DNA of 64,000 bases from Patescibacteria group bacterium (GTDB lineage: Bacteria > Patescibacteriota > Minisyncoccia > UBA9983): NCBI GenBank assembly GCA_040752125.1, contig JBFMFK010000003.1, positions 19,034 to 83,033 of the forward strand, in the 5' to 3' direction. The translations under genes were made by a program, and so were the position numbers. Below, in pieces: positions 12,891-57,011 of the stretch (positions are counted from its first letter, which is position 1; every line of letters begins with the position of its first letter). The notes under the pieces are model-generated. The model ran no database searches. It had not been told where the DNA came from and worked only from the letters and a program-made list of their open reading frames with translations.

Positions 12891-12978
12891 GAAATTGAAA
12901 AAATTTTTTATCATCAGGAGATAAACGAATTTTTATTTATCCACAAGAAAAACAATAAAAAACATATCAAAAAAAACA

Positions 12979-13374: not shown

Positions 13375-13755
13375 ATGAAGAAAGAGAGAAAAGACACACT
13401 AATTGAAAAGTTTGAAGAAGCCTTTCAGAGATTGGAAGAAGCAATTAAAGAACGGCCGACTCAAATGAACAAAGATGCAACTATCCAACGTTTTGAATTT
13501 ACTTTTGAATTAAGTTGGAAAGCGGCGCAAGCATTTTTGAAAGATCAAGGCATTGTTTGTAAAAGTCCGCGAGATTGTTTCAGAAAGTCTGCTGATTATG
13601 GTCTGATTAAAAGTCCAACACCCTGGTTTGATTTTTTAAAAGCAAGAAATAATATTGCGCATACCTATAACCAAAAGATGGCAGATAGGATTTATAAAAA
13701 AGCAATTAAATTTCCAAATTTCGCTGAAAAACTTTTAAAAAATTTAAAAGAATAA
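13375..13755 (+). CDS. HEPN-domain nucleotidyltransferase substrate-binding protein (HI0074 family), partner of the upstream MNT
   Basis: IQRFEFTFELSWKA and the R-x4-H motif ARNNIAHTY are present. It follows the MNT gene after 11 nt. Confidence 0.7.
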   Translation: MKKERKDTLIEKFEEAFQRLEEAIKERPTQMNKDATIQRFEFTFELSWKAAQAFLKDQGIVCKSPRDCFRKSADYGLIKSPTPWFDFLKARNNIAHTYNQKMADRIYKKAIKFPNFAEKLLKNLKE

Positions 13756-15442: not shown

Positions 15443-18400
15443 ATGAGAAAATTTGAAAAATTTTTAAAGAAAACTTTATCAATAATCCTTTTGGTTATTT
15501 TGGTTAGTAGTGCTCTTTTTGCAAATCCCCAAACTGTTGAGGCGGCGACTTTTAATTGGACGCAGAGTAATTGGTCTGGCGGGGCTTCTGCCAACACTGC
15601 TTCTCATCCTACCAATCAAACCGGCTGGAGTTATTATGCTTCAAAAGATGCTAATTTATCCGCTGGAGCGAGCAGCTTAACTCTCTCCACTATTGCTTCT
15701 TCCACCACCCAAACCACGAATGCTGATTTTAATTCGGGAGCAACTTCAACAACGCAGGTGAGTAATAATAGTGTGGTGTTGGCAGTAGAAACGCCGGGAG
15801 CTTCTTGTGAAAGTAGCATTACTGTTAACCACACTGCCGGCGCAATATCGCCAATTACCACAAGTATTACTTATGGAACGGTAATTACTAATCTTACAGG
15901 ATCTAATAAATGCTGGATAACCCAAAACCTTGGTGCTTCCCAACAGGCAAGTTCAGCTACTGATAATACCGATGCCTCTGCTGGCTGGTATTGGCAATTT
16001 AACCGCAAGCAGGGGTATGCAGTTGGGCCAACACCTGCCTGGACAATTACATCCATTGATGAATCTAGCGACTGGACTTCAGCTAATGACCCCTGCACCA
16101 TAGAGCTGGGCACCGGTTGGCGCTTGCCTACTTATACTGAATGGGCTAATGCTGATGGAGGATGGGCTAACTATAACGATACATACGCTTCTGTGTTAAA
16201 ACTCCATGCTGCTGGCGGCCTCTTCGCCAGCAGTGGCGGCCTGTACGGCAGAGGCGCGACCGGCCTCTACTGGAGCAGTACTCAGTACATTAGCACCCTC
16301 GGCTACTACCTGATCTTCGACAGCAGCAGCAGCAACATGGGCAGCGACAACAATAAGGCGTCTGGGTTTTCGGTGCGCTGCCTTACAGATAATATTTTAG
16401 GCTACTACTCCTCTGGCACTTTTACTTCTAATGTGATTAATCTTGGAACAAATGTAAATTGGGGCAATCTTTCCTGGACTGAAACAGGAACAGGCACGAT
16501 AACTATGAAAGCTCGGTCTTGTGATGACAGCGCTTGTTCTGGTGAAGCAGCTTTCACAAGTTGTTCTAATATCACTAATGGCGCGGCTTTATCAACTGGT
16601 AATTGTGTAACTAATGGTCATCAATATATTCAATATCAAACTGCGCTCTCAACTTCAGATATCTCATTTACACCTTCTTTAGATGACGTGACTATTGGAT
16701 ATAATTATTATCCTTCTTCTCAAAATCTAACTTCATCTAAATACGATTCCTCATCTGACGGCAATGTTATTGGCGGCCTGGCTTGGGATGAGGATGCGAC
16801 TCTTACTTCTGGAACGAGTGTAACCCTGTCACTTCGCACTGCTTCAAGCACAGTTAATCTTGATTCTGCCTCTTGGAGCGATTTTACCAATGCCACAGCA
16901 AATTGTTCTAAAGCAGGGACAAGAGTAACTTGCACCTCTTCAGCCATTCCTTCTTCTATGAAAGACGGCTCTGGCGACCAGTGGCAGCAATATAAAGTTA
17001 CTCTGACTTCTACTGGTGCTAACAAACCCACTGTAACATCTGTCATTCTCACTTATGTGGTTAATGCTCGGCCGGAGTTTGATGTGCCTAATACCACTGC
17101 TTCCCAAATCTCTGATTCCGGCAGTGCTAACTGGGGCAAGGTGCAGATAACTTATCCTATTAAAGACATTGATACTACTTCTGGTTCTATTACTCCCGGA
17201 TATGTCACTCCTTCTTTTGAATATAATACTGGCTCTGGCTGGACAACCATTACCTCTGGTTATTTGAATTCCGGAGCTTTAGACAATAAAGCGGTGCAGG
17301 AAGGAAGCTATACATCGCACACTGCTTATTGGGACGCCAAAACGCAGATCCCTAGCACTTATACAACGACCGGCCAGATACGTATCACTATAAATGATAA
17401 TGAGGGCGCCAATAATTCCACCAGCACTACCATTTCCAATATTACCATTGACACTACGAATCCAACTTTATCAGCTTTTACCCTTGACTCGTCCGCGGAT
17501 ACTTTAACGATTTCTGCTTCTGATAATTCTAATCTCCAATATCTAATTTCTAATAACCAAGACGGCTCGGCTGATGGCTCTAATGCTATTTCCAGCTCTT
17601 GGCAAACAGTAGGAGGAACTTCTACCAGTACTACCCGCGCCTGGGCATATTCTCCGGACTCCACTGGTTATGAATCAGTTACTATTGCCTACAGAGATAT
17701 TTACGGAAACACTGCCACTACCACAGATATAGCGCCTTATCAGCCCAAGAACTTTTACTATAAAGATATCTGCAATACTGCTATCAATGACTGGAGAGAA
17801 TTTCTTTCTTGGGGAGTGTATACTGCCACCACCACTTCTTCTTGGGCTAATTACAAAGTTTATCGGTCCACAGATGGAACGACTTATTCTTTGCTTGGCA
17901 CTTTAAGCAGTGACGTTAATACCAATTACTATATTGATTCTTCTGTAGCTTCAACTACTACTTATTATTATAAAGTTTTAATCACTGATTCTGACGGAGA
18001 TATTTCATCTTTCACAGACCCGGTGTCCGATCTGCCCAATGGCCAGGGCGGTTCTGACTCTACCGCTCCCTTAATCACTTCCGGCCCTACTGTGACAGAA
18101 ACCAAATCAACCTGGGCAAGCATTGTCTGGACAACAGACGAGATTTCCAATTCAGTGGTGGAATACGGCTTGACAACTAGCTACGGCTTAACCAGCACGG
18201 TAAACACTATGGTTACTTCTCATTCTGTAACTTTAACCGGGCTCACTCCCAACACCACTTATTATTTTCGGGTTAAATCAACAGATATTGCCTCTAACAC
18301 GGTCACATCAAGCGGCTCGTCATTTGTCACCACTCAAGGACCGATTATCTCTTCTGTCACAGCAGAGAGCGTGACTGACAATACCGCTTCTATTGTCTGG

Positions 18401-20335
18401 AACACTACCACTGATTCTTCTTCTTGGGTCTATTATTCCACCAGCGCCTCGTTTACCAGTTCTTCTACAGAAGGCACTAATACTTTGGTTGGCACCTCAA
18501 CTGCCGGCTATTACCAGCACCGCGTAACCCTGACTGGACTGACAAAGAACACAACCTACTATTATTATGTTAAGTCAACTGACGCTAATTCTGACACTGC
18601 CACAGACACCAATGGCGGCAATTATTATACTTTTACCACTACTTATGACAATCAGCCGCCAGTGATTTCAGACATTACAGTTCCGGTCCGGGCATATAAC
18701 GCTTTGGTTGTTACCTGGAACACTGATGAAAACGCCAATACACGGCTGTATTATGATACTGTAAGTCATGTTGATTGTTCTGGATATTCTAATAGTTCAA
18801 CTTTAGACACCAACCTGACTATTTCCCATGCTGCGGCAATAACTTCCCTTATTGGAGAAACCGCTTATTATTACAGGGTTATTTCAGCTGACGCTAATGG
18901 CAACACCACTTGCTCTAGCGAGCAGGAGACCTCCACTGTGGCTGAGAATGAAATTATTACTGTTTATGTCGGCGGTGGAGGGCCTTCTACGCCTGTTGTT
19001 GTTGATACCACAGCCCCGGCTATTTCCAATATTAATGTCAGCGATATCTCGGCTTTTGGAGCAACAGTGAATTTTAGCATCAGCGAGCCAGCAGCAGGAT
19101 TTGTTCATTACGGCAAGGACACTAATTACGGATTTATTGCCGGTTCTGACACCTTGGCCTCCAGCCACAGCGTAAAATTAGCCGGCTTGCGCCTGGGCAC
19201 AGAATATCATTATAAAGTAACGGCTATGGACAAAGCCGGTAATGTGGGCCAGTCTTCAGACCAGACCTTTTCCACTCTTTTTGCTGCAGAGGCTCTGGAA
19301 GAATTAACGACTTTGGAAAATGCAGAGCAGTTCCAGGAGCAACTAGAAGGAATAATTGAGTCAGTTATGCCTTCCTTGGTTCCTCCTTTTGTGAGCAATG
19401 TCATAGTTGACAATATCACAGAAACTTCTGCTACGGTCAAATGGAAAACCAATATTCCTGCTTTCGGTTCTGTTTCCTATGCAAGTGATTCTGAATATAA
19501 TCAAGACAAGGAAAAACCATATGTGGTGGAAATTGTTGAGAGTACAAAAGAAAAAATTAAAGAACATACTCTAGAGCTGCGCGACCTCTCTCCCGCAACC
19601 AAATATCATCTTCAGGCAAAGTCTTATGTTTTTCCGGATGTGATAGGCAAATCCAAAGATTCTGAATTTTATACATTATCATCAAAGATAAAGCCGGAGA
19701 TCACAAGAGTGGGCAATACTGATGCTGAAGTGAGATGGGTGACTGCTAAAGAAACATCTTCTTTTGCCGAATACCGAAATCTTGCGACAAATAAATTAGG
19801 AAGGATGGGAGATGATAGAAGAGTTCAAAGTCACTTCTTAAAGATAGAAAATCTTGCTCCGGGAACAAATTATGAAATCAAGGTCTTTGGCTATGACCAA
19901 GACAATAATATTATTGAAGCTGATTCCATTACCATCAGGACCAAACAAGATATATCTCCGCCTGTTATTTCTTCCATCAGGATTGATAATGCCATGGTTC
20001 CCGGCAAAAGGGATAAACTTCAGACAGTGATCTCCTGGAAAACAGACGAATCATCCAATTCCCGAGTTTATTTTGAAGAAGGAATTGGAATTTCAGATAA
20101 GCTTACCAATAAGACTGGTCAAGAGAATGAATATACCACAGACCACATTGTCATCATTACCTCAATGAAGCCAGCCACAGTTTATAGAATCAAAGTTTCT
20201 TCCAGGGATGAGGCCGGCAATACAGCTGATTCTCCAATGAGGACCTTTTTGACTCCGCGCTCTGCAGAATCTGTTTTAGATGTCATTGTCCGCAATTTTG
20301 AGGAAAGCTTTGGATTCCTCAAGCGCCTGCGCTAA
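15443..20335 (+). CDS. 1630-aa secreted/surface protein: signal peptide, FISUMP/DUF1566-like domain (…CWITQNLGA…GWRLPTYTEW…GFSVRCL), Ser/Thr-rich linker regions and ~7 fibronectin-III/PAP-N-like repeats
   Basis: The N-terminus has a hydrophobic core followed by VEAATF. The FISUMP hallmarks KCW..QNL, GWRLPT..EW and G.SVRC are present. The repeated FN3-type units each end in ...Y.Y.V.S.D..GN. There is no C-terminal anchor. Confidence 0.85.
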   Translation: MRKFEKFLKKTLSIILLVILVSSALFANPQTVEAATFNWTQSNWSGGASANTASHPTNQTGWSYYASKDANLSAGASSLTLSTIASSTTQTTNADFNSGATSTTQVSNNSVVLAVETPGASCESSITVNHTAGAISPITTSITYGTVITNLTGSNKCWITQNLGASQQASSATDNTDASAGWYWQFNRKQGYAVGPTPAWTITSIDESSDWTSANDPCTIELGTGWRLPTYTEWANADGGWANYNDTYASVLKLHAAGGLFASSGGLYGRGATGLYWSSTQYISTLGYYLIFDSSSSNMGSDNNKASGFSVRCLTDNILGYYSSGTFTSNVINLGTNVNWGNLSWTETGTGTITMKARSCDDSACSGEAAFTSCSNITNGAALSTGNCVTNGHQYIQYQTALSTSDISFTPSLDDVTIGYNYYPSSQNLTSSKYDSSSDGNVIGGLAWDEDATLTSGTSVTLSLRTASSTVNLDSASWSDFTNATANCSKAGTRVTCTSSAIPSSMKDGSGDQWQQYKVTLTSTGANKPTVTSVILTYVVNARPEFDVPNTTASQISDSGSANWGKVQITYPIKDIDTTSGSITPGYVTPSFEYNTGSGWTTITSGYLNSGALDNKAVQEGSYTSHTAYWDAKTQIPSTYTTTGQIRITINDNEGANNSTSTTISNITIDTTNPTLSAFTLDSSADTLTISASDNSNLQYLISNNQDGSADGSNAISSSWQTVGGTSTSTTRAWAYSPDSTGYESVTIAYRDIYGNTATTTDIAPYQPKNFYYKDICNTAINDWREFLSWGVYTATTTSSWANYKVYRSTDGTTYSLLGTLSSDVNTNYYIDSSVASTTTYYYKVLITDSDGDISSFTDPVSDLPNGQGGSDSTAPLITSGPTVTETKSTWASIVWTTDEISNSVVEYGLTTSYGLTSTVNTMVTSHSVTLTGLTPNTTYYFRVKSTDIASNTVTSSGSSFVTTQGPIISSVTAESVTDNTASIVWNTTTDSSSWVYYSTSASFTSSSTEGTNTLVGTSTAGYYQHRVTLTGLTKNTTYYYYVKSTDANSDTATDTNGGNYYTFTTTYDNQPPVISDITVPVRAYNALVVTWNTDENANTRLYYDTVSHVDCSGYSNSSTLDTNLTISHAAAITSLIGETAYYYRVISADANGNTTCSSEQETSTVAENEIITVYVGGGGPSTPVVVDTTAPAISNINVSDISAFGATVNFSISEPAAGFVHYGKDTNYGFIAGSDTLASSHSVKLAGLRLGTEYHYKVTAMDKAGNVGQSSDQTFSTLFAAEALEELTTLENAEQFQEQLEGIIESVMPSLVPPFVSNVIVDNITETSATVKWKTNIPAFGSVSYASDSEYNQDKEKPYVVEIVESTKEKIKEHTLELRDLSPATKYHLQAKSYVFPDVIGKSKDSEFYTLSSKIKPEITRVGNTDAEVRWVTAKETSSFAEYRNLATNKLGRMGDDRRVQSHFLKIENLAPGTNYEIKVFGYDQDNNIIEADSITIRTKQDISPPVISSIRIDNAMVPGKRDKLQTVISWKTDESSNSRVYFEEGIGISDKLTNKTGQENEYTTDHIVIITSMKPATVYRIKVSSRDEAGNTADSPMRTFLTPRSAESVLDVIVRNFEESFGFLKRLR

Positions 20336-20411: not shown

Positions 20412-20482
20412 GGGCCTATAGTTTAGTGGCAGAACACCGCTTTTGCACAGCGGAAATGGCAGTTCGATTCTGCCTAGGTCCA
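20412..20482 (+). tRNA. tRNA-Ala (anticodon UGC)
   Basis: The cloverleaf can be drawn by hand. The acceptor stem GGGCCTA/TAGGTCC includes the G3:U70 wobble that is the Ala identity element. The anticodon stem is CCGCT/AGCGG with loop TTTGCAC, the T-loop is TTCGATT, and there is no encoded CCA. Confidence 0.85.
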
Positions 20483-27998: not shown

Positions 27999-29465
27999 AT
28001 GAGTTCGTTTGAGGAATTACGGAAAGGGAGATTGGAAAAATTAAATCTTCTCAGAGAAAAAGGCGTGGACCCTTTTCCTATATCCATTCGGAGAGATTTT
28101 TCTATTATTGAGGCATTAAAAGATTTTCCCAAATTATCCAAAAAGAAAAAACAATCTTTTGTCTGCGGAAGGGTAATGGCGATACGCGAGCACGGGGGCT
28201 CTATTTTTTTTGACATTAGTGACGGTGACGCAATAATGCAGGCCTATATCAAAAAAGATGAAATAGGAAAGGAACAATTTTCTCTTTTTCAAGAAACCAT
28301 TGATATCGGTGATTTTGTAGAGCTTAAAGGATTATTTTTTAAGACAAAGAAAAAGGAAAAAACAATAAAAGTTTCTCAATGGAGGATTATCGCAAAATCC
28401 TTAAGACCTTTGCCGGACAAATGGCACGGCTTGCAGGATGTTGAAGAAAGATTCAGAAAAAGATATCTGGATTTATTGATGAACAAAGAAATAAAAGGAA
28501 GATTTTTGCTGCGTTCTAAAATTATCTCAGAGATGAGAAACTATCTTGATAAAGAAGGTTTTCTGGAAGTGGAAACGCCGGTTTTGCAGCATTTGGCAGG
28601 CGGAGCATTGGCCGAGCCTTTTAAAACCCATCATAATGCTTTGGATATAGATTTATATCTCCGCATTGCGCCTGAACTTTATTTAAAAAAATTATTGATT
28701 GGAGAATTTACAAAAATTTATGAAATAGGAAGAAATTTCAGAAATGAGGGGATTGATGTTACTCATAATCCTGAATTTACCATGCTTGAATTGTACGAAG
28801 CATATAGAGACGCGGAATATTTAAGAAAATTTTCAGAAAAAATGATAAAAACTATAGTCAAGAAGATTTTGGGTAAAAAAGAATTTGAATTTAGAGCAGA
28901 GAAGATATCTTTTAGAAAAAAATTCAATATTGTTTCCTATTTAGATATTCTTAAGTATTATACTTTAATAATTGAACCAGAAAAAATGTCGCGCGAAGAT
29001 TTTGTGCTGAAATCTAAGCAATTTGGAATCAAGACAGAAGATTTTGAGACTAAAGAAAAAATAATGGACAATATTTTTAAAAAAATATGCCGGCCAAAAA
29101 TAATCCAGCCGACATTTGTTATTGACTACCCAACAGGATCATCGCCTTTAGCCAAAAGAAAGGAAAAAGATAAAAACTTAATTGACAGATTTCAATTGAT
29201 AATAGGCGGCTTGGAAATTATTAATGGCTTTTCTGAACTTAATGACCCTCTTGAACAAAAAGAAAGATTTAAAGAACAGGATAAAGCCAAAGAAAAAGGA
29301 GAAAAAGAAGTTTCTCCCAGTGATGAGGATTATCTTGAAGCAATAGAATACGGACTGCCGCCAGCTGCCGGTCTTGGTGTCGGCATAGACCGTCTGGTTA
29401 TGCTTCTTGCCAATACTCACAACATTCGCGAAGTCATTCTTTTCCCGACCTTAAGACCAAAATAA
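27999..29465 (+). CDS. lysS: lysyl-tRNA synthetase, class II
   Basis: An OB-fold N-terminus is followed by FLEVETPVLQ, and the C-terminus ends in GLGVGIDRLVMLL. Confidence 0.9.
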   Translation: MSSFEELRKGRLEKLNLLREKGVDPFPISIRRDFSIIEALKDFPKLSKKKKQSFVCGRVMAIREHGGSIFFDISDGDAIMQAYIKKDEIGKEQFSLFQETIDIGDFVELKGLFFKTKKKEKTIKVSQWRIIAKSLRPLPDKWHGLQDVEERFRKRYLDLLMNKEIKGRFLLRSKIISEMRNYLDKEGFLEVETPVLQHLAGGALAEPFKTHHNALDIDLYLRIAPELYLKKLLIGEFTKIYEIGRNFRNEGIDVTHNPEFTMLELYEAYRDAEYLRKFSEKMIKTIVKKILGKKEFEFRAEKISFRKKFNIVSYLDILKYYTLIIEPEKMSREDFVLKSKQFGIKTEDFETKEKIMDNIFKKICRPKIIQPTFVIDYPTGSSPLAKRKEKDKNLIDRFQLIIGGLEIINGFSELNDPLEQKERFKEQDKAKEKGEKEVSPSDEDYLEAIEYGLPPAAGLGVGIDRLVMLLANTHNIREVILFPTLRPK

Positions 29466-29596
29466 TCTATTTAGCATCCGCATCCGATTTTCGATTTTCG
29501 ATGTTTAATCGAACTTATATTTGCTATAGCAGATATAAGTACATTTAAATATAAATACATTACAAATGTTACCTTTTTTTATTCACTAAATTCCTT

Positions 29597-29699
29597 TGTG
29601 GAAGTTATCCACAATCTTTTATTTGGAAAATAAAGAAAAGTGGAGTATAGTGTTAATAAAGTGGTAGATTGTGGATAATTGTGTGGATAATGTGGATAA
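29597..29699. promoter_or_regulatory. DnaA-box cluster: TTATCCACA (29605..29613) and three TGTGGATAA (29670..29678, 29682..29690, 29691..29699) plus a 2-mismatch box at 29597; adjacent AT-rich tract 29536..29590
   Basis: Four perfect 9-mers matching the E. coli/B. subtilis DnaA-box consensus fall within 95 bp, immediately upstream of mraZ. Confidence 0.6.
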
Positions 29700-29723
29700 C
29701 TCTCATTTATACGGAAAAATATT

Positions 29724-30158
29724 ATGCTTATTGGTGAATACAAACATAGTCTTGACCCTAAGAAAAGGGTAGCCATCCCTGCAAAATTTAGAAAGGAAAT
29801 AGGAAAAAAAGCAGTAATCACTCGAGGATTAGATCAGTGTCTTTTCATATATCCAATGAATGAATGGGGAAAGGTGGCCGAAAAACTTAGCGAGCTACCG
29901 ACCGGCTCATCTGATACAAGAAATTTCGTCCGCCTTTTCCTGTCAGGTGCAAGTGATGTAGAAATTGATGCTTTAGGAAGAGTCTTGATTCCGGATTATC
30001 TTAAAAAATTTGCCGGCCTGAAGGAAAAAGCAGTTATTGTAGGTATGCATAAGCGATTAGAAATATGGAGCGAGGAGAACTGGGAGAATTATAAACAGCG
30101 CATAGAAAAACAGACAGACATTCTGGCAGAAAAATTAGGAGAATTAGGAGTATATTAA
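29724..30158 (+). CDS. mraZ: transcriptional regulator MraZ
   Basis: The N-terminus reads GEYKHSLDPKKRVAIPAKFR and the duplicated MraZ fold is present. It is the first gene of the dcw cluster. Confidence 0.9.
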   Translation: MLIGEYKHSLDPKKRVAIPAKFRKEIGKKAVITRGLDQCLFIYPMNEWGKVAEKLSELPTGSSDTRNFVRLFLSGASDVEIDALGRVLIPDYLKKFAGLKEKAVIVGMHKRLEIWSEENWENYKQRIEKQTDILAEKLGELGVY

Positions 30159-30161
30159 TTT

Positions 30162-31067
30162 ATGCTTCATAAGCCTGTTCTTTTAAAAGAAGTAGTAGGA
30201 TATCTGAATCTTAAGCTAGGCGATACTGTTTTGGATGCAACAATAAATGGAGGTGGACATGCAGAAAAAATTGTAGAAAGAATCGGCAATGATGGAACAT
30301 TAATTGGTATAGATCAAGATGCGGTGATATTAGAAAAACTTAAATTAAAAATTAAAAATTTAAAATTTAAAGATAATGTAGTTTTAATAAATGGAAATTT
30401 TAGAGATTTAGATAAACTTTTAGAACTTTTAAAGATAAAAAAAATAAACGGAGCGTTATTTGATCTAGGAATGAGCTCAATCCAATTGGAAGACTCAGGC
30501 CGAGGATTCACATTTATGAAAGATGAACCTCTATTAATGACTTACAAATCAGAGATCGCCAGCAGTGATTTAACAGCAAGAGATATATTAAATCAATGGA
30601 GCGAAGAGGATCTAACACAAATCCTATTCAAATATGGCGAAGAAAGATATGCCAGAAAAATAGCGAGAGCGATTATTAAAAAGAGAAAGAAAAAGAAAAT
30701 AGAAACTACTACAGAATTAAAAGAGATAATAGAAAAAAATGTTCCGCCATCTTATCGCCATAAAAAAGGTATAAGCCCTGTCACAAAAACATTTCAGGCA
30801 TTAAGGATCACAGTCAATGATGAACTAAATGCACTAAAAGAGGGAGTCGGAAAAGTTTGGAAGATTATGAAACCCGGTTCAAGATTGGTAGTAATATCAT
30901 TTCATTCACTTGAAGATAGAATAATTAAGAATTTTTTTAAAGATAAAAAAAATAATGGAGGGGGAATCATTCTAACAAAAAAACCAATAGTGCCGTCAAG
31001 CGAAGAAATAAAGATAAATCCAAAATCACGTAGTGCAAAATTAAGAGCTATAGAAAAAATAAAATGA
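30162..31067 (+). CDS. rsmH: 16S rRNA (cytosine1402-N4)-methyltransferase RsmH
   Basis: The N-terminus reads HKPVLLKEVV. DATINGGGHA and FHSLEDR motifs are present. Confidence 0.9.
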   Translation: MLHKPVLLKEVVGYLNLKLGDTVLDATINGGGHAEKIVERIGNDGTLIGIDQDAVILEKLKLKIKNLKFKDNVVLINGNFRDLDKLLELLKIKKINGALFDLGMSSIQLEDSGRGFTFMKDEPLLMTYKSEIASSDLTARDILNQWSEEDLTQILFKYGEERYARKIARAIIKKRKKKKIETTTELKEIIEKNVPPSYRHKKGISPVTKTFQALRITVNDELNALKEGVGKVWKIMKPGSRLVVISFHSLEDRIIKNFFKDKKNNGGGIILTKKPIVPSSEEIKINPKSRSAKLRAIEKIK

Positions 31068-31387
31068 CAACCTTAATCAAAACAATTCCATATCAGATCT
31101 TAGATGAAGATAAAAGAAAAATCTTGTCTCGTTTATTTTTGGTAATTATTGCATTCTCGTCCATATTTTATGTCTATTTCGCAGGATTGACCATTAAGCA
31201 AATGCTGGAAAAAAACAAAAATGAAGAACATTTTAAACTGATCAATAGAGAATATCAACAAAATGAGGAGAAATATTTCAGAATTCTTGCTCAATTAGAC
31301 CTAGAACAAGCCCGTTTATTAGGATTCATTGACCCAAAGAAGGGAGAATTTATAGTCTATCAATCTGCCGCTGTTGCTCGCAGATAA
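31064..31387 (+). CDS. ftsL: FtsL-like small bitopic division protein
   Basis: It sits between rsmH and ftsI and has one TM plus a coiled coil. Confidence 0.5.
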   Translation: MTTLIKTIPYQILDEDKRKILSRLFLVIIAFSSIFYVYFAGLTIKQMLEKNKNEEHFKLINREYQQNEEKYFRILAQLDLEQARLLGFIDPKKGEFIVYQSAAVARR

Positions 31388-33104
31388 CATGAGGCGAGAC
31401 AGTATTGTTCGTCGTATTAGAATAACGTATTTTTTTCTTTTTATTATCGGCGCCTTTTTTATCGCGCGTCTTTTTTTTATTCAGGTGATCCACGGACAAT
31501 CCTATAGGGAGATGGCCAATCAACAATATATTTCACCGTCTAGTCATTATTTTGATAGGGGTATTATCCATTTTAAAAAAAAAGATGGGCAATTAATTTC
31601 TGCTGCAACAATCAAAACAGGCTACCTTTTGGCTATTAATCCGAAGCTGATAGAAAATGCCGAAGATATCTATGAAAAGATTTCAATAATCACCGCGATA
31701 GATAAAGAATTATTTTTAAAATCAGTATCAAAAAAGGATGATCCTTACGAAGAAATTAAACATCGTCTTAATGAAGATGAGGCAAAGAGAATCCAAAAAC
31801 TGGGAATAAATGGAGTCGGCATCCATTCTGAAACATGGAGGTATTATCCTGCACAAAATCTCGCCTCAAGTGTTCTGGGTTTCGTCGGATATAATGGAGA
31901 CAAATTGGAAGGAAGATATGGTCTTGAAAAATACTATGAATCAATTTTAAAAAGAGGGGGGGGCGGAAATCTTAAAATAAATTCATTTGCTGAGACAATA
32001 ATTGATATCAAAAATTTGGTAGGGAATAATTCTCAAGAAGGCGATATTATCCTGACTATTGATCCTGAAGTCCAGACCTTTTTGGAAAATAATCTTAACG
32101 AACTCCTGAAAAAATATGATGCTCAACTAGCCGGGGGTATTATTATTGAACCAAAAACAGGGAAAATACTGGCAATGGCTGCAAAGCCTGATTTTGACCC
32201 AAATAATTATGCTGAAATTAAAAATCTCTCTTTCTTTCTCAATCCTAATGTACAGAACACCTTTGAAATGGGATCAATAATGAAAGCGCTGACGCTTGCT
32301 GCCGGTTTAGATTTAAATAAGATTACTCCCCAGAGTACTTATAGAGATGAAGGCTTTGTGATCTTGAATAATAAGCGCATAGAAAATTATGACAGCAAGG
32401 GGCGCGGCCTAGTTGATATGCAAACAGTGTTAAATAAATCTTTAAATACGGGAGCGGTATTCGTGATGCAACAGATAGGGAAAGAAAATTTTTATAATTA
32501 CATCCTTAATTATGGTCTAGGAGAAAAAACCGGCATTGATCTGCCAGACGAAGTATCTGGTTTGATTTCTAATCTTAAAAGTGACAGAGAGGTGGAATAT
32601 GCCACTGCCTCTTTTGGTCAGGGTATTGCTGTCACGCCAATTGAAATGGCCTGCGCCCTGTCTGCCTTGGCCAATGGCGGATTGCTAATGAAACCGTATA
32701 TTATTGATGAAATCAGAAGCGAGGATGGAGTCTCTAGAAAAAAAATAGAGCCAATAGAAAAAAGAAGAGTTTTAAAACAGGAAACTTCTGAAGAAATAAG
32801 CAGGATGCTGGTTAAAGTAACAGATGAGGCGCTTGTTAATGGCGCCTACAAAATGGATCATTATACCATTGCTGCGAAAACAGGCACGGCCCAGATGCAC
32901 AAAGAAGATCAAAAAGGTTATTACGAAAATGAATATATACATTCATTCTTTGGATATGCGCCAGCCTTTGATGCAAGATTTTTAATCCTGCTCTATCTGG
33001 TAAAACCTCAAGGCGTTGCCTATGCCTCTCATTCATTGACAGAGCCTTTTATCAATATTTTGAAATTTTTACTGAATTATTATCAGGTTCCGCCAGACAG
33101 ATGA
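31374..33104 (+). CDS. ftsI: penicillin-binding protein FtsI (PBP3, divisome transpeptidase)
   Basis: SxxK (GSIMKAL), SxN (SLNTG) and KTG (KTGTAQ) motifs are present. It occupies the dcw position. Confidence 0.8.
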   Translation: MLADNMRRDSIVRRIRITYFFLFIIGAFFIARLFFIQVIHGQSYREMANQQYISPSSHYFDRGIIHFKKKDGQLISAATIKTGYLLAINPKLIENAEDIYEKISIITAIDKELFLKSVSKKDDPYEEIKHRLNEDEAKRIQKLGINGVGIHSETWRYYPAQNLASSVLGFVGYNGDKLEGRYGLEKYYESILKRGGGGNLKINSFAETIIDIKNLVGNNSQEGDIILTIDPEVQTFLENNLNELLKKYDAQLAGGIIIEPKTGKILAMAAKPDFDPNNYAEIKNLSFFLNPNVQNTFEMGSIMKALTLAAGLDLNKITPQSTYRDEGFVILNNKRIENYDSKGRGLVDMQTVLNKSLNTGAVFVMQQIGKENFYNYILNYGLGEKTGIDLPDEVSGLISNLKSDREVEYATASFGQGIAVTPIEMACALSALANGGLLMKPYIIDEIRSEDGVSRKKIEPIEKRRVLKQETSEEISRMLVKVTDEALVNGAYKMDHYTIAAKTGTAQMHKEDQKGYYENEYIHSFFGYAPAFDARFLILLYLVKPQGVAYASHSLTEPFINILKFLLNYYQVPPDR

Positions 33105-34195
33105 TAAAAAAAGAATACGATAAATTTTTATTGATCATTGTAGGTATTTTTATAATATCCGGAGTTTTTATCTTGACGTCTGCTTCAACTGGACTTTTAA
33201 GCAGAAATGGAAACGTCAGTTTATCAAACATTTTATTTCGACAGTTTGTCCTCGGACTTGGTGAAGGGATAATTCTTTTTTTAATCACGAGTCGCATCCA
33301 TTATAAAAAATGGAAAAAATTTGCATTAATAATCTTTCTCATCTCTTTTTTACTGACTGTCCTGGTCTTTGAGTCACATATCGGTTTTGGCCATGGAGGG
33401 GCAAGGAGGTGGCTTAATATAGGACAGTTTTTCTTTCAACCATCTGAATTGCTCAAGCTTGCCTTCATTATATATCTGGCTTCCTGGCTGAGCACCAGAC
33501 AAGAACATGTACAATCTTTTAAATTTGGTCTTGTTCCCTTTTTGATCATCGTCGGATTGGTGGGTCTTGTTTTAATCAAGCAGCCTGATATAGGCACATT
33601 GGGTGTCGTTGCTATAACCAGTCTGACTATGTTTTTTATTGGCGGAGGCCGGCTGAGCCAGATTGCCTTTACAATTTTCTTGGGAGTAATTTTAGTTTAT
33701 ATTCTCACTCTCACTTATCCTCACGTTGCTAACAGATTGGTCGTTTTTTTAAATCCTTCAGCAGATCCTCAAGGAATAGGATATCAGATGAAACAGTCGC
33801 TTATTGCCATTGGTTCAGGCGGTCTTCTGGGAAGAGGTTTTGGCATGAGTGTGCAAAAATTTTATTATCTTCCCGAGCCAATAGGAGATTCTATCTTTGC
33901 TGTTTTTGCAGAGGAATTTGGTTTTATGGGAAGTTTGTTTTTAATAGGCCTTTTTATGTTCTTTCTTTACAGAGGTTTTTCTATTGTTTTGAAAGTACCT
34001 GATCAATTTGCTAGACTCTTAGGCTCAGGAATTGTTATACTAATAGTAGCCCAGAGCTTGATTAATATTGGATCAATGACGGGCATTATACCATTAACTG
34101 GTCTGCCCTTGGTTTTTATTAGCCAAGGGGGTTCATCCTTGGCAATGGCAATGGCAGAAGTCGGAATTTTATTCAATATTTCCCGATATGTATAA
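33101..34195 (+). CDS. ftsW: SEDS glycosyltransferase FtsW
   Basis: It is a polytopic protein with the conserved SEDS C-terminal region. It sits directly upstream of murG. Confidence 0.85.
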   Translation: MIKKEYDKFLLIIVGIFIISGVFILTSASTGLLSRNGNVSLSNILFRQFVLGLGEGIILFLITSRIHYKKWKKFALIIFLISFLLTVLVFESHIGFGHGGARRWLNIGQFFFQPSELLKLAFIIYLASWLSTRQEHVQSFKFGLVPFLIIVGLVGLVLIKQPDIGTLGVVAITSLTMFFIGGGRLSQIAFTIFLGVILVYILTLTYPHVANRLVVFLNPSADPQGIGYQMKQSLIAIGSGGLLGRGFGMSVQKFYYLPEPIGDSIFAVFAEEFGFMGSLFLIGLFMFFLYRGFSIVLKVPDQFARLLGSGIVILIVAQSLINIGSMTGIIPLTGLPLVFISQGGSSLAMAMAEVGILFNISRYV

Positions 34196-34201
34196 GCTAC
34201 T

Positions 34202-35329
34202 ATGAAAATAATCCTTACGGGCGGAGGCACAGGAGGACATTTTTATCCTATTCTCGCTGTTATAGATGCAATAAATATGCTTGCGGAGCAAAAGAAAATG
34301 TTGCCTCCGGAGATAGTTTTTATGTCTGATTCTCCTTATGATTCTGCTGAATTGGTAAAACGCGGGGTACGTTTCAAGAGAATCTATGCCGGAAAGATCA
34401 GACGTTATTTTTCTTTAAGAAATTTCCCTGACATTCTTAAAACTTTAGCAGGAATCATAAAGGCGGTTGTGATTGTTTACCTAGATTTTCCTGATATCAT
34501 CTTCAGCAAGGGCGGCTATGTCAGCTTCCCAGTTATCTTTGCAGCAAAAATTTTTGGTATGCCTCTGGTTATCCATGAATCAGATGCAGTACCTGGGAAA
34601 GTAAACCAATGGGCAGGAAAATTCGCCAGAGGAATAGCTATTTCTTTCCCGCAGACAATCAAATATTTCCCCAAAGAAAAAACCGCCTATACAGGCAATC
34701 CAATTAGAAAAGGATTTTCTGTTCCCCTAAAAACGGGTTCAAGGGAAATATTAAAACTGGAGGAAAATCTCCCGGTTATTCTCGTCCTCGGCGGATCACA
34801 AGGGGCAAGGGCGATCAATGATCTCATTCTTGATGTACTGCCTGAATTGATTCAAAAATACCAGATTATCCATCAATGCGGAGAAAATAATTTTGAGGAT
34901 GTCAAAAAAAGAATATCTATTATTTTAGATAAATCTTCATTAAGCCATAGATATCATCTTTTTAAATATCTCAAAGAAGATTTATTGAGGATGGCTTATG
35001 GCAGTGCCAATTTAGTCATTTCTAGGGCGGGTTCGGGTTCAATTTTTGAGATTGCTACTTCTGGTTTGCCCAGCATTCTTATTCCACTTCCTCATGCAGC
35101 CCAGGATCATCAAAGAGAAAATGCACAGGCATATGCAGAGACCGGAGCCACAGAGATTATTGAACAGAATAATCTTACGCCTCATATTCTGCTTTCTGAA
35201 ATAGAAAAAATAATATCTAATAAAAAATTAATGGAAGATATGTCTAAGACAGCAAAAAATTTCTCCAAGCCAGATGCTGCAGAAAAAATAGCCAAAGAAA
35301 TTTTAGTTATTACTTTGGAACATTCTTAA
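34202..35329 (+). CDS. murG: MurG (UDP-GlcNAc:lipid I GlcNAc transferase)
   Basis: GGGTGGHFYP N-terminal glycine-rich loop; GT28 fold. Confidence 0.9.
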   Translation: MKIILTGGGTGGHFYPILAVIDAINMLAEQKKMLPPEIVFMSDSPYDSAELVKRGVRFKRIYAGKIRRYFSLRNFPDILKTLAGIIKAVVIVYLDFPDIIFSKGGYVSFPVIFAAKIFGMPLVIHESDAVPGKVNQWAGKFARGIAISFPQTIKYFPKEKTAYTGNPIRKGFSVPLKTGSREILKLEENLPVILVLGGSQGARAINDLILDVLPELIQKYQIIHQCGENNFEDVKKRISIILDKSSLSHRYHLFKYLKEDLLRMAYGSANLVISRAGSGSIFEIATSGLPSILIPLPHAAQDHQRENAQAYAETGATEIIEQNNLTPHILLSEIEKIISNKKLMEDMSKTAKNFSKPDAAEKIAKEILVITLEHS

Positions 35330-35331
35330 AA

Positions 35332-36729
35332 ATGGAAAGATCTTCAATCAAAGATTTAAAAAATAAAATAGGAAAGAGTGTGAAAATTTCCGGCTGGGTA
35401 GATGCACGAAGAGACCATGGTAAATTGATTTTTCTTGACCTGCGCGATGCGGGTGAAAAAGTGCAAACAGTAATCCTGCCTGAGAAAAAAGAAGTCCATC
35501 ATTTAGGAGAAAAAATTAGGCCCGAATGGATTTTAGAAATGATAGGGGAAGTCAAAAAACGCCCTGAGAAAATGGTCAATCCAGAGCTGTTGCTCGGAGA
35601 TATAGAAATTGAAATTGATAAGATAATAATTCTAAATCAATCAAAAACGCCCCCATTTGATTTAAGCACTAGTGGCTATGAAGTTGATGAGGAAATCCGT
35701 CTTCTATACCGTTATCTGGATCTGCGGCGGCAGAGACTCCAGAAAAATTTAAAAATTCGCCATGAAATAATAAAATTTATCCGCGATGAACTTTCAGAAA
35801 GGGGCTTTATAGAAATAGAAACTCCGCTTTTAACTAAATCTACACCAGAAGGAGCGCGCGATTATGTAGTGCCTTCACGCCTTCACCCAGGAAAATTTTA
35901 TGCTCTTCCGCAATCGCCCCAGCAATACAAACAGCTTTTAATGGTCGCCGGGATAGAAAAATATTTTCAAATCGCCAAGTGTCTGCGCGATGAAGATACC
36001 AGAGGAGACAGACAGCCGGAATTTACACAGTTGGATCTGGAGATGAGTTTTATTGATGAAAATGAAGTAATGAATTTAATTGAAGAAATGATGATCAAAA
36101 TTATTGAGAAATTTTTTCCAAACAATAGAATTTTAAAAAGGCCCTTCCCAAGAGAAAAATACGGCGATGTCATTAAGAATCATCAAACTGACGCTCCAGA
36201 TATTAGAAACAATAAAAGCAATAATGCTGAATTGGCATTTTTGTGGGTGACAGATTTTCCTCTTTTTGAATATTCTGACAAAGAAAAAAGATTAGTTTCA
36301 GTTCATCATCCTTTTACCAGTCCGCATTTGGATGAAATTGAAATGTTGGATAAATTTCCCAAACAAATAAGAGCAAGAGCATATGATTTGGTTTTGAATG
36401 GTTTTGAGATAGGCGGCGGATCAATCAGAATATACCAAAGAGATTTGCAGGAAAAGATTTTTAAAATTTTGGGCATTAAGCCAAAGGTTTATAATACACA
36501 ATTCGGGCATTTACTTGAGGCATTTGAATTCGGCGTTCCACCACACGGCGGAATCGCTTTGGGTTTAGACAGATTGATCGCTATTCTTCAAGATGAACCC
36601 AATATCCGCGAAGTTATTGCTTTTCCAAAAACCGGCGACGGAAGAGACCTAATGATGAATGCGCCAACAGAAATTGACAAAGAACAACTCAAAGAACTGG
36701 ACATTGAAATCAAAAAAAAGAAATATTAA
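35332..36729 (+). CDS. aspS: aspartyl-tRNA synthetase, short archaeal/type-2 form
   Basis: An OB-fold N-terminus is followed by QSPQQYKQLL and FRDEDTR-like CLRDEDTRGDRQPEFTQLD. The C-terminus ends in GLDRLIAIL. Confidence 0.9.
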   Translation: MERSSIKDLKNKIGKSVKISGWVDARRDHGKLIFLDLRDAGEKVQTVILPEKKEVHHLGEKIRPEWILEMIGEVKKRPEKMVNPELLLGDIEIEIDKIIILNQSKTPPFDLSTSGYEVDEEIRLLYRYLDLRRQRLQKNLKIRHEIIKFIRDELSERGFIEIETPLLTKSTPEGARDYVVPSRLHPGKFYALPQSPQQYKQLLMVAGIEKYFQIAKCLRDEDTRGDRQPEFTQLDLEMSFIDENEVMNLIEEMMIKIIEKFFPNNRILKRPFPREKYGDVIKNHQTDAPDIRNNKSNNAELAFLWVTDFPLFEYSDKEKRLVSVHHPFTSPHLDEIEMLDKFPKQIRARAYDLVLNGFEIGGGSIRIYQRDLQEKIFKILGIKPKVYNTQFGHLLEAFEFGVPPHGGIALGLDRLIAILQDEPNIREVIAFPKTGDGRDLMMNAPTEIDKEQLKELDIEIKKKKY

Positions 36730-43520: not shown

Positions 43521-43550
43521 GGCTTGCCCTGCGAAGCTTCAGCGAAGTGG

Positions 43551-43622
43551 GACCTCTTCGTCTAGTGGTTAGGACACATGGTTCTCAGCCATGCAACACG
43601 GGTTCGACTCCCGTAGAGGTCA
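43551..43622 (+). tRNA. tRNA-Glu (anticodon CUC)
   Basis: Cloverleaf drawn by hand. The acceptor stem is GACCTCT/AGAGGTC. The anticodon stem is CATGG/CCATG with loop TTCTCAG, and the T-arm is ACGGG-TTCGACT-CCCGT. Confidence 0.85.
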
Positions 43623-43639
43623 ATGCTATAATAAGACCA

Positions 43640-46306
43640 ATGTTAAGACAGGCAATTGCTTGGCATAGTTTGGATTTAAAAGAAATAAAAAAACAATTGG
43701 CGACTGATTTTAGCAATGGTTTAAGTGAAAAAGAAGCGCAAAAGCGGCAGAAACATTACGGCAAAAATCTTTTTGAGAAAAAAAAGAAATTTTATTATCT
43801 TAAACTTTTATGGAAGCAAATAAAAAGCCCCCTTATTTTTATCTTAATCATCGCCGGCCTTATCACTCTCATTTTAAAAGAATATGCTAACACTACTGTT
43901 ATTTTCATCGCTGTTTTTATAAATACTTTAATGGGCATCTTTCAGGAAGGTCGGAGTTCGCGGGCTTTTGAAAAATTGCAAGCATCACAGAAAAAATACG
44001 CCACCCTTGTCAGGGAGGGTAGAAAAAAAATAATAGAATCTTCCGAACTTGTTCCCGGCGATATTATTGAAATCCAAATGGGGAATCAGGTGCCAGCGGA
44101 TGCCCGCATCATAGAATCAAAGAGGTTGGAAGCCAATGAAGCAGTTTTAACAGGGGAATGGCTGCCAGTCAAAAAAGACAATCAAAAATCTCTGCCTGAG
44201 AAAACACATATCACTGACAGGAGCAATATGTTGTGGATGGGGAGTTTGGTGACAGAGGGGTGGGGAAGAGGCGTTGTTGCAGATACGGGTTTCAACAGCC
44301 AAGTCGGCCGCATCGCTGAATTTATAAGCGGAGAAGATACGGTTGTTACGCCGCTTCAAAAAAATACAAAAAAATTGGCTAAGTTTCTGAGTTTTATCGT
44401 TGTTTTGTCGCTGTTGGTTTTGATCATCCTGGGTTTGTGGCGGGGCCAGAACTTTTTTGGCATATTTTTAACTGCTGTAGCTCTGGCAGTGTCAGCTATT
44501 CCCGAGGGCCTGCCAGTGGCAGTGACAGTGGTTTTAGCAATAGGAATGCAGAAAATTTTTTCCAAAAACGGCCTGCTGAAAAATTTAGATTCAGCAGAAA
44601 CCCTTGGTTCCACTTCTCTCATTCTCACTGACAAAACCGGCACCCTTACAAAGGCAGAGATGAATGTGGAAAAAATCATTACTTTGCTTTCCGAAGAAAA
44701 CAAATTAAAGCCAAAAGAACACAAAGACAGATTGGCTGTTTTAGAGATGGCTTTGCTAGCCACTGAAGCATTTATAGAAAATCCTCAAGATAATCTCGGA
44801 GAATGGATTATTAGAGGAAATCCAATGGGGAGGGCAATTTTTCTGGCTTCCTTGGAATCAGATATCCAGCCTTTGGTCTTGCAAAAAGAGCATAAGCGCA
44901 TTGATTTTATACCTTTTGACGCGGGCAGAAGATATGCCGCTTCCTTATATAAAAAAAATAATCAGGAATCTTATATTTTTGTCATTGGCGCGCCAGAAGT
45001 TATTCTTCAGTTTTGCAACAAAATTTACAAAAAAGAAAAGGAAATTGCTCTTAGCGAACCAATACTCAAATTATTAAACAAGGCCTCTTTGGAAGAAACC
45101 TCAAAAGGCGCGAGAATTTTAGCTGTGGCTTACAGAAAGGCAGATTGGGATTCTTTTCCCAGAGAGCAAGAGAAGAAACATAAGGAAATTTTTTCAAAGA
45201 TGACCTTGGGAGGATTTATTGCCTTTCATGACCCCTTAAGAGAGAATGCCAAGCAGTATTTGCAAGAGTCAAAGGAAGCATCTATAAGAACTGTGCTGGT
45301 AACCGGCGACCATGTGGAAACCGCTAAAAAAATCGGAGAGGAAGTCGGAATTTTACGCAAAAACGGACTTGTTTTAACAGGAGATGAGTTAGAAAAAATG
45401 AGCGACAAAGAACTCGAGGAGATAATCGGAAAAGTAGATATTTTTGCTCGAGTCCTGCCCCAGCAAAAAATGAGAATTTCAAATTTCTGGCAGCAAAGAG
45501 GGGAAATAGTGGCTATGACCGGCGACGGAGTTAATGACGCGCCTGCCTTAAAGCACGCTGATATCGGAATTGCTCTTGGTTCAGGCACCGAGGTGGCAAA
45601 AGAAGCGTCAGATTTAATTCTTTTAAATGATAGTTTTAATACTATTGTGGAGGCAGTTAAGGAAGGAAGAAGAATCATGGATAATTTAAGAAAAATTATT
45701 ACCTATCTTTTGTCAACGTCTTTCAGTGAAATCGTCTTAGTGGCGAGCTCCATTCTGGTTGGCGCGCCATTGCCAATTCTGCCTGCGCAAATTCTCTGGG
45801 TCAATATCATAGAGGAAGGTTTTATGAATTTTGCCTTTGCTTTTGAGCAGGCTGAAGAGAATATTTTAAAAAGAGACCCCAAAAAAGAATGCAGCAGGGC
45901 AATTTTGACAACACGAATAAAAAAAATGATTTTGATAATAGTGGCAATAACCAGTCTTTTGCTTATCTCTGTATTTTTTTTCTTAGATTATAAAAATTAT
46001 CCCCTGGAAAAAGTAAGAACGGTTATGTTTGGGGCTATGGCCATAGATGCAATATTTTTCAGTTTTTCCCTCAAGAATCTGCGAAAGCCGGTTTGGAAAA
46101 TCAATATCTTTTCCAACATTTATCTTCTTTTCTCGCTATCAGTCAGTATTTTTCTTTTGCTGAGTGTTTTATTTATTCCTTTTCTGCAAAAATTGCTTTC
46201 TGTTGTTTCGCTTAGTTTTTTAGAATTAATGATTATTTTTATTATCGGCTTTTTGAATCTTTTGACCATAGAAACAGTAAAATATTTCGTCTTTAGAAAA
46301 CAATAA
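43640..46306 (+). CDS. P-type Ca2+-transporting ATPase (P2-type)
   Basis: DKTGTLT, TGDGVNDAPALK and the PEGLP TM4 motif are present. The supplied ORF (from 43547) reads through tRNA-Glu, so the start is taken at ATG 43640 (MLRQAIAWHSLDLKEIKK…). Confidence 0.85.
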   Translation: MLRQAIAWHSLDLKEIKKQLATDFSNGLSEKEAQKRQKHYGKNLFEKKKKFYYLKLLWKQIKSPLIFILIIAGLITLILKEYANTTVIFIAVFINTLMGIFQEGRSSRAFEKLQASQKKYATLVREGRKKIIESSELVPGDIIEIQMGNQVPADARIIESKRLEANEAVLTGEWLPVKKDNQKSLPEKTHITDRSNMLWMGSLVTEGWGRGVVADTGFNSQVGRIAEFISGEDTVVTPLQKNTKKLAKFLSFIVVLSLLVLIILGLWRGQNFFGIFLTAVALAVSAIPEGLPVAVTVVLAIGMQKIFSKNGLLKNLDSAETLGSTSLILTDKTGTLTKAEMNVEKIITLLSEENKLKPKEHKDRLAVLEMALLATEAFIENPQDNLGEWIIRGNPMGRAIFLASLESDIQPLVLQKEHKRIDFIPFDAGRRYAASLYKKNNQESYIFVIGAPEVILQFCNKIYKKEKEIALSEPILKLLNKASLEETSKGARILAVAYRKADWDSFPREQEKKHKEIFSKMTLGGFIAFHDPLRENAKQYLQESKEASIRTVLVTGDHVETAKKIGEEVGILRKNGLVLTGDELEKMSDKELEEIIGKVDIFARVLPQQKMRISNFWQQRGEIVAMTGDGVNDAPALKHADIGIALGSGTEVAKEASDLILLNDSFNTIVEAVKEGRRIMDNLRKIITYLLSTSFSEIVLVASSILVGAPLPILPAQILWVNIIEEGFMNFAFAFEQAEENILKRDPKKECSRAILTTRIKKMILIIVAITSLLLISVFFFLDYKNYPLEKVRTVMFGAMAIDAIFFSFSLKNLRKPVWKINIFSNIYLLFSLSVSIFLLLSVLFIPFLQKLLSVVSLSFLELMIIFIIGFLNLLTIETVKYFVFRKQ

Positions 46307-56202: not shown

Positions 56203-56598
56203 ATGAACGAAAATAAGCTGAGCAATCTTAAGAAGATTTTTAAATTTTATCCACAGATAAAACTTGTTTATCTTTTTGGTTCAAGGGCAAAAGGTAAAAC
56301 AGGTCCTCTCAGTGATTATGACTTCGCTTTTTATATAGATGAAAAAGACAAGAAAAAAGTTTTTGAACTGAAATTTAAATTAATGGATGAAATAACCAAT
56401 GAATTAAAAACAGACAAGGTTGACATAATAATGTTAGACACAACAGAAGGACCTGAAATAAAATATAATATCATTAAGGAAGGTAAATTAATCTATGGAA
56501 AAGAGCCATATAAGATTTTAATTGAACCAAAAATTTTCAATGAATATTTTGATTTTATTTCTATTCTTAAAAGACATAATCTTACAAAAGTATCATGA
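56203..56598 (+). CDS. minimal nucleotidyltransferase (MntA-like antitoxin)
   Basis: LFGSRAKGKTGPLSDYDFAF (GSx9-11SDxD NTase motif) is present. Confidence 0.75.
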   Translation: MNENKLSNLKKIFKFYPQIKLVYLFGSRAKGKTGPLSDYDFAFYIDEKDKKKVFELKFKLMDEITNELKTDKVDIIMLDTTEGPEIKYNIIKEGKLIYGKEPYKILIEPKIFNEYFDFISILKRHNLTKVS

Positions 56599-57011
56599 CT
56601 AATTTAAGTATAATTGAAAATAAAATAAGTGCCATCCAAAAGTATTTAAAGATTCTTGAAGGATACCAAAAATATTCCAGGAAAGAAATAGAAGAAAATA
56701 TTGACATCAGAGGAGCTGTAGAAAGATATCTCTATCTTGTTAGTCAAGCAGCCATTGATTTAGCAGGGGCGGTTATTTCTTTTAAAAACTTGCGCAAACC
56801 CAGCACTCTTAGTGAAAGCTTCCATATTCTTAATGAAGAAAATATTATCCCGAAGGAATTAGTTGAAAAAATGACAAGAATGACTGGGTTTAGAAATATC
56901 ATCGCTCATGATTATGAAAAAGTAAATTATGATATTGTCTATGACATTTTGCACAATAAGCTTAAAGATATTGAAGAGTTTACAAAGATTATCAAAATGC
57001 TAAAATCTTAA
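56595..57011 (+). CDS. HepT-like HEPN toxin (DUF86)
   Basis: GFRNIIAHDY (R-x4-HxY) is present. It overlaps the MNT by 4 nt. Confidence 0.75.
   Translation: MTNLSIIENKISAIQKYLKILEGYQKYSRKEIEENIDIRGAVERYLYLVSQAAIDLAGAVISFKNLRKPSTLSESFHILNEENIIPKELVEKMTRMTGFRNIIAHDYEKVNYDIVYDILHNKLKDIEEFTKIIKMLKS

Follow-up and report, generated by a model that had tools for sequence, protein, structure and literature searches.

The spacer between lysS and mraZ in the window, by which we mean the whole 64-kb stretch of DNA that was analysed, contains four perfect DnaA boxes within 95 bp. On balance we favour the interpretation, drawn from the arrangement of its motifs, that this region is the promoter and operator of an mraZ-led division and cell-wall operon, and that the operator is a composite one, serving both MraZ and DnaA. 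The spacer is not a replication origin. The features on which the argument depends are as follows.

27999-29465: lysS, identified by Pfam, the upstream neighbour of the spacer
29466-29595: non-conserved part of the spacer, with tandem CATCCG/ATTTTCG duplications and an AT-rich tract, outside the functional core
29596-29624, + strand: inverted repeat TTGTGGA-AGTTA-TCCACAA, then TCTTTTATTT, a weak terminator-like hairpin after lysS
29605-29613, + strand: box U, a perfect TTATCCACA with flank GTTATCCACA, inverted relative to the tandem boxes
29623-29628, + strand: predicted -35, TTGGAA, with a 17-bp spacer to TATAGT
29640-29643, + strand: GTGG box of MraZ type in the promoter spacer, 21 bp 5' of box A
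29646-29651, + strand: predicted -10, TATAGT, giving a predicted transcription start near 29658
29650-29653, + strand: GTGT box over the -10
29661-29664, + strand: box A, AAAGTGGT, a plain MraZ-type box at about +3, lacking the DnaA-box extension
29670-29678, - strand: box B, TGTGGATAA, a perfect DnaA-box 9-mer with its MraZ GTGG core 10 bp past box A
29682-29690, - strand: box C, TGTGGATAA, 12 bp past box B; a GTGT at 29681 preserves the 10-bp step
29691-29700, - strand: box D, TGTGGATAAC, 9 bp past box C, at about +33 to +42
29724-30158, + strand: mraZ (Pfam MraZ, E 3e-36), first gene of the operon, with its ATG at 29724
30162-35329, + strand: rsmH (mraW), a 107-aa ORF, ftsI, ftsW and murG, assigned by Pfam, the ORFs overlapping or tightly packed

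There is a strong case, by homology, for taking the mraZ product to be the cognate repressor of its own operator. In an alignment with the MraZ structures of M. genitalium and M. pneumoniae, residues D11, K13, R15, D82 and R86 are all present in the window's protein; of these, K13, R15 and R86 make the contacts of MraZ with DNA, while D11 and D82 position the two arginines (PMC12957436). The 107-aa ORF after rsmH is likely, from its position, to be ftsL-like. Between ftsI and murG, the annotated genes do not include mraY or murC/D/E/F. Directly after murG comes a second gene for a class II aminoacyl-tRNA synthetase (Asp/Asn/Lys type; 35332-36729), and with lysS before mraZ the dcw stretch is therefore bracketed by two such genes.

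A previous sequence-only reading of this DNA had reported four perfect DnaA boxes, at 29605, 29670, 29682 and 29691, and all were present when we scanned the sequence again. One is TTATCCACA on the + strand (29605-29613), while the other three read TGTGGATAA, i.e. are boxes on the - strand (29670-78, 29682-90 and 29691-99). Matching used the near-universal consensus, TTWTNCACA or TTATCCACA, with which the consensus of the host lineage is assumed to agree. The contention that the cluster is beyond chance was borne out, with 8 perfect 9-mers in the window against 0.40 expected and 0 of 100 shuffles reaching 8. Within the window, the 258-bp lysS-mraZ spacer is the sole cluster with at least three consensus boxes (TTWTNCACA) in 300 bp. 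Two details of the earlier description have to be corrected: the additional box at 29597, given as having two mismatches (TGTGGAAGT), actually has three, and the tract at 29536-29590, described as almost pure A/T, is 83.6% A/T over its 55 nt, a content matched or exceeded by 1.6% of 55-nt windows (the maximum being 92.7%). The direct repeats reported near 29472-29500 were found, as two tandem copies each of CATCCG and ATTTTCG at about 29475-29501. We also observed a 13-nt perfect inverted repeat, TTATCCACAATCT and AGATTGTGGATAA (29605-29617 and 29666-29678), which flanks the core promoter; in L001, one of the related loci described below, a match past the 9-mer was not found.

Outside the spacer there are four single perfect boxes in the window, at 3443, 12937, 37519 and 56247, where Markov models of order 1-5 lead us to expect 0.6-1.1. 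We treat these as incidental. In L001 and L002, which of the related loci are closest to the window and which overlap the window in part only (the overlap including the scpA region with the 37519 box), no perfect 9-mer occurs except upstream of mraZ. The box at 12937 is intergenic and that at 56247 lies inside a predicted MNT (nucleotidyltransferase) ORF at 56203-56598. The window contains two MNT/HepT-type toxin-antitoxin modules, at 13375-13755 and 56203-57011. It also contains a 1630-aa ORF (15443-20335) with fn3 and PhoD_N/purple-acid-phosphatase N-terminal repeats, which lies in an island of GC content 0.42-0.44 and negative GC skew in a background of 0.33-0.36, and may encode a horizontally acquired surface protein. 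Two tRNA genes (20412-20482 and 43551-43622) are the sole Rfam matches in the window besides a chance miRNA; because the start of the ORF at 43547-46306 overlaps the second of these, the true start of that ORF is probably further downstream.

The sequence-only reading had also suggested that the DnaA boxes control a dcw promoter. This suggestion is compatible with our results and is partly strengthened by the conservation described below, but it overlooked the MraZ-binding repeat array in which the boxes lie. The tandem arrangement of the boxes and their site directly before mraZ are explained by this array, since the GTGG cores form MraZ-binding repeats with a period of 10 bp. On one strand, GTG(G/T) boxes occur at 29640, 29650, 29661, 29671, 29683 and 29692, the successive distances being 10, 11, 10, 12 and 9. 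This six-box chain is the sole chain of at least four in the 64 kb, on either strand, and the longest GTG(G/T) chain in 200 second-order Markov simulations was 3. The GTGG cores have offsets of 0, 10, 22 and 31 (mean 10.3 bp), i.e. they are in helical phase. The GTG(G/T) boxes begin in the promoter spacer and reach about +41, four of them at +3 to +41, and periodic GTGG arrays stand before mraZ in all 80 of the Patescibacteria loci that we compared.

Known MraZ sites comprise three or four boxes, GTG(G/T), spaced 6 nt apart 5' of mraZ, with the transcription start within the first box (PMC12957436). In E. coli Pmra, GTGG occurs at -44, -34 and -24 (sequence GTGGgaaattGTGGggcaaaGTGGgaataa). The array described here shares with E. 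coli Pmra, the B. subtilis MBRs and the M. genitalium four-box operator its direct GTG(G/T) repeats at ~10 bp just 5' of mraZ, its overlap with the promoter and start (both predicted here), and a cognate MraZ that has the two DXXXR motifs. The sequence of box A, GTGGTAGATT, which reads GTGGGGAATT in relatives, comes close to E. coli GTGGGAAATT and is akin to the Pmra boxes GTGGgaaatt, GTGGggcaaa and GTGGgaataa. The differences are that there are six boxes here rather than three or four, that the steps of 10, 11, 10, 12 and 9 replace a strict 10, that three of the boxes have a conserved 3' ATAA which makes them perfect DnaA boxes, and that there is an extra inverted copy upstream of the -35. 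Judged by its repeats, 29640-29692 is an MraZ-binding array and a clear member of this known kind of operator, and homology allows us to infer strongly that MraZ binds there. With respect to the predicted promoter, the spacer box, the -10 box and the four boxes at +3 to +41 are the classic autorepression layout.

In order to compare the region with its counterparts, we used 80 Patescibacteria loci (designated L001 and onwards) that had been fetched with MraZ as probe, at 57-90% MraZ identity, and for the clade comparison 19 genomes with a common 10-12(-9) box spacing. It should be borne in mind that the genomes compared are kin, so that the conservation counts do not represent so many independent events. 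In the 1.2 Mb of these 80 loci, 37 of the 45 perfect 9-mers lie within 450 bp 5' of mraZ, and the other 1.17 Mb contains 8, against 9.6 expected. Every cluster of at least three consensus boxes in the 80 loci is at mraZ, and the boxes track mraZ also where the upstream gene is not lysS. The stretch from 29596 to 29701 aligns well with L001, L003 and L007, while 29466-29595 is missing from all three.

Within the aligned stretch, we predict a sigma-70-type promoter of the mraZ-rsmH-ftsL-ftsI-ftsW-murG operon at 29623-29651. Relatives have TTGACA, TTGTTG or TTTGTA as the -35 at the same place, and among the 19 related genomes a -10 pattern TAnAAT is found at a fixed distance from box A (T in 19/19, A in 18/19 and the final T in 17/19). 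The GTGG of the promoter spacer is present in 17 of these 19. We also considered whether GATAAT, a -10-like motif in boxes B and C, could provide extra promoters; these were rejected because the tenth base is not conserved. The inverted repeat at 29596-29624 can form a hairpin with a 7-bp stem containing 3 GC pairs (dG -7.9 kcal/mol) followed by a T run, and this hairpin may terminate lysS. Its 3' arm is box U. The hairpin is formed in the window, L001 and L002, while in L004, L006, L009, L011 and L013 the partner of box U is gone and the 9-mer is kept.

The boxes of the array are conserved according to different rules. In the 19 kindred genomes, boxes B and C follow the pattern G(T/G)GG-A-T-A-(A/G), with A as the fifth base in 19/19, while the base after GTGG is G or T in box A and the spacer box, apart from a single genome with A in box A. 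Box A is GTGG in 19/19, with G/T as the fifth base in 18/19 and A in 1/19. In box B, the last three bases of GTGGATA are A in 19/19, T in 18/19 and A in 19/19, and the next base is A in 16/19 and G in 3/19. The GGATA(A/G) of box C persists even in the 6 of 19 genomes in which GTGG has become GGGG. Box D is TGTGGATAAC or CGGGGATAAC in relatives with the 10-12-9 spacing. The 9-mer extension is kept in about 19 related genomes and is limited to specific boxes. Such differing rules for neighbouring boxes would not be expected to be imposed by an MraZ homo-oligomer alone.

Box U lies 9 bp 5' of the -35, at about -54 to -46 from the predicted start. It is perfect and in the same promoter position in L001, 2, 4, 6, 7, 8, 9, 11, 13 and 51, has one mismatch in L003, 10 and 14, and takes the variant form TTATGCACA in L019, 36, 67 and 74; across at least 10 genomes it stays 6-9 bp upstream of the -35. 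The flank GTTATCCACA of boxes U and D is found also in E. coli R1 and R4. In the 44 more distant loci, a TGTGNATAA box is found at a fixed position 5' of the -35 in 31; the base at N, where the DnaA consensus TTWTNCACA is itself degenerate, is T in 24 of these 31, C in 6 and A in the remaining one. Head-box variants GTGC and GTGA, in distant loci, break the MraZ core and still match the DnaA consensus. The DnaA consensus also accommodates the substitutions seen at box positions 1 and 5 (T, C, A and G at the latter), while GGGGATAA (position 7) and GTGGACAA (position 3) fall outside both the strict DnaA consensus and the MraZ core.

Several further features of the related loci deserve mention. 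In L015-L080 (44 loci) there is a strongly conserved block ~48 bp upstream of a GTGGTGGGAGATAGTGG anchor, with the form TGTGTATAA-n-TGTGGTTGC-n-GGTGGG..AAAGTGGTATAnAATGTA..GTGGTGGGAGATAGTGGTATAC and up to 8 phased boxes. L006 has, about 90-45 bp 5' of mraZ, a long perfect inverted repeat that begins inside box D, GGATAACTTTTACTAATTG-cgaa-CAATTAGTAAAAGTTATCC, and sits in an extended leader between operator and mraZ. The leaders of L008 and L009 are also longer, by 60-130 bp.

Our conclusion from these comparisons, taken together, is that the pattern of conservation points to the full 9-mer, in both orientations, as a unit under selection, and that chance probably does not explain its identity with the DnaA box. 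The DnaA box is near-universal, and DnaA is for this reason the obvious candidate for a reader of the 9-mer. With moderate confidence, we infer from these matches that DnaA binds at U, B, C and D, four sites of the high-affinity type.

There are several other possible explanations for the array and its boxes. The first is that MraZ alone reads every box, the inverted one included, that the MraZ of this clade prefers a longer site, GTGGATAA, and that the match to the DnaA box is a coincidence which the common TGTGG core makes likely. The helical phase of the GTGG cores (0, 10, 22, 31; mean 10.3 bp) would be expected of such an operator, and in the distant clade the head box too is in 10-bp phase with the remaining boxes. 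The B. subtilis MraZ site, GTGG[A/T]G repeated three times, permits GTGGA (bioRxiv 10.1101/2022.02.09.479790). Moreover, in the clade with the ATAA extension MraZ residue 17 is changed from S to A and residue 83 from S to A/Q, both adjoining the DNA-reading motifs; given this contrast with clades that lack the extension, a longer, lineage-specific MraZ site is possible, the correlation of residues 17 and 83 with box type being confounded by phylogeny.

Other observations make us sceptical that MraZ is the only reader. The full extension never occurs in box A or the spacer box. In L004, a close relative, the MraZ reading segments are identical to those of the window (DAKKRVAIPAK and IDALGRV), yet the operator boxes are plain GTGG, and box U is retained. 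The inverted copy cannot join a head-to-tail array and is still conserved as a full 9-mer, while the head boxes GTGC and GTGA of distant loci violate the MraZ core and match the DnaA consensus. Finally, in the M. genitalium complex it is the flank 5' of the core (AAA) that is conserved, the first three bases of the 3' spacer being N3 (PMC12957436). We regard an MraZ-only operator as unlikely, though with enough in its favour to be kept in view.

A second explanation is that the boxes form a cluster mainly for replication control, titrating or inactivating DnaA in the manner of the B. subtilis clusters and E. coli datA, so that the position at mraZ would be secondary. Four perfect boxes in 95 bp would suit such a role, and the B. 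subtilis DBCs and E. coli datA likewise have at least three consensus boxes in about 100 bp, away from oriC and dnaA. In B. subtilis, DnaA-box clusters outside the origin are known to modulate initiation (PMC3245932; PMC2533591). Unlike those clusters, the one described here is locked to promoter architecture, its boxes keeping their place with respect to the -35, -10 and MraZ boxes regardless of the upstream gene; distant relatives retain a single box, which would allow little titration, and no IHF-type element or titration role is evident here. A main role in replication control thus seems to us improbable.

The third is that some other DNA-binding protein reads GGATAA(C), or that GUGGAUAA, present three times at +12 to +41, acts in the mRNA leader. 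Within boxes B and C, no part varies less than GGATAA, and a correct prediction of the start would place the boxes in the transcript. Against another reader, the universal DnaA box is matched at 9 of 9 positions, and E. coli R1 and R4 have the same G flank. Against a leader function, the intergenic region has no Rfam match, the fold of the leader is weak (-7.7 kcal/mol), and box U cannot act in the same RNA because it is upstream of the promoter and inverted. We rejected a leader-RNA function on account of the weak fold and of box U lying outside the transcript, and we hold this third explanation as a whole to be very improbable.

The remaining proposal, made in the sequence-only reading, was that the spacer is the chromosomal oriC of a reduced genome, sited at the head of the dcw cluster; it drew on the dense cluster of perfect DnaA boxes adjoining an AT-rich tract, and we give it next to no credence. 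The check on GC skew that it had recommended, when run on the window, revealed no switch point at the site, the skew being +0.10 to +0.18 on either side and the cumulative skew climbing from 1 to about 52 kb with no minimum. There is no change of gene orientation, with 37 consecutive + strand ORFs (of at least 150 aa) passing the site and covering 86% of 1-52.6 kb, and the skew 5' of mraZ is positive in 80/80 related loci. The AT tract (83.6% A/T), put forward as an unwinding element, is together with the direct repeats a window-specific insertion, missing from L001, L003 and L007; the spacer has no DnaA-trio-like repeats; and the conserved block is wholly accounted for by promoter and operator. 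The earlier remark that dnaA is absent nearby was correct, and can be extended, in that we found no DnaA homologue anywhere in the 64-kb window or in the 80 loci, using signature motifs and tblastn with an approximate E. coli DnaA sequence as query, and no dnaA within 10 kb of mraZ in the 80 relatives. The site has the same 10-mer, GTTATCCACA, as the high-affinity boxes of R1/R4 type in E. coli oriC, but comes without an unwinding element, a skew switch, a change of gene orientation or linkage to dnaA. Origin finders that count boxes will call the mraZ site as oriC in Patescibacteria, and annotators should beware of this. The near-complete Nomurabacteria contig L032 (JACKGF010000001.1, 997 kb) starts 310 bp upstream of mraZ, which may be chance, or may mean that the record was rotated to a predicted origin and is an example of a misled origin finder.

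Returning to the composite operator that we favour, its operation might be as follows. A sigma-70-type promoter would start transcription near 29658, and an MraZ oligomer on the phased GTGG array would mask the promoter together with the beginning of the transcribed region, thereby repressing its own operon. Sitting on U (about -54 to -46) to one side of the core promoter and on B, C and D (+12 to +42) to the other, DnaA would either block RNA polymerase or compete with MraZ. Division-gene transcription would then track free, active DnaA, with a high level giving lower dcw transcription if the analogy with B. subtilis holds; it is this analogy that weakly suggests repression as the direction of regulation.

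Goranov et al. reportedly described, in 2005, DnaA as a transcription factor at the B. subtilis yllB(mraZ)-ylxA-ftsL-pbpB promoter, which is the nearest precedent for the present site. In later papers that cite this work, DnaA binds the yllB(mraZ)/ftsL promoter and is believed to repress it, the operon being described as under negative control (PMC2533591; PMC8203912; bioRxiv 10.1101/2022.02.09.479790). As these papers describe it, the operon is the same as here and so is the proposed logic, namely that DnaA lowers ftsL when replication is perturbed. The differences are that the boxes here are perfect, are four in number and are merged with the MraZ repeats, that they are known from sequence alone, and that the host, unlike B. 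subtilis, is an uncultured member of the Patescibacteria.

In the literature that we searched, nothing specific was found on DnaA boxes at mraZ, or in CPR. As far as that literature shows, three aspects of the present site are new: the merging of perfect DnaA boxes with MraZ repeats, the inverted box conserved 5' of the -35, and the lone DnaA-type box that the wider group conserves. We would tentatively extend our interpretation to the Patescibacteria (Paceibacteria/Parcubacteria), while inclining slightly to doubt it at that breadth: DnaA and MraZ may share the dcw operator, the upstream box may be ancestral, and in one clade the MraZ repeats may have become DnaA boxes.

The coupling of replication initiation to division in bacteria is still poorly understood. 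If our interpretation is true, MraZ and DnaA, with sites that overlap, would either compete or act cooperatively, and the status of replication initiation would be directly coupled to the transcription of division genes in very small genomes. The group would also offer natural operator variants for comparison, in plain, single-box and four-box form. Lineage-wide and conserved in sequence, such sharing of the MraZ operator with DnaA boxes would provide a simple, testable wiring for the coupling of replication to division.
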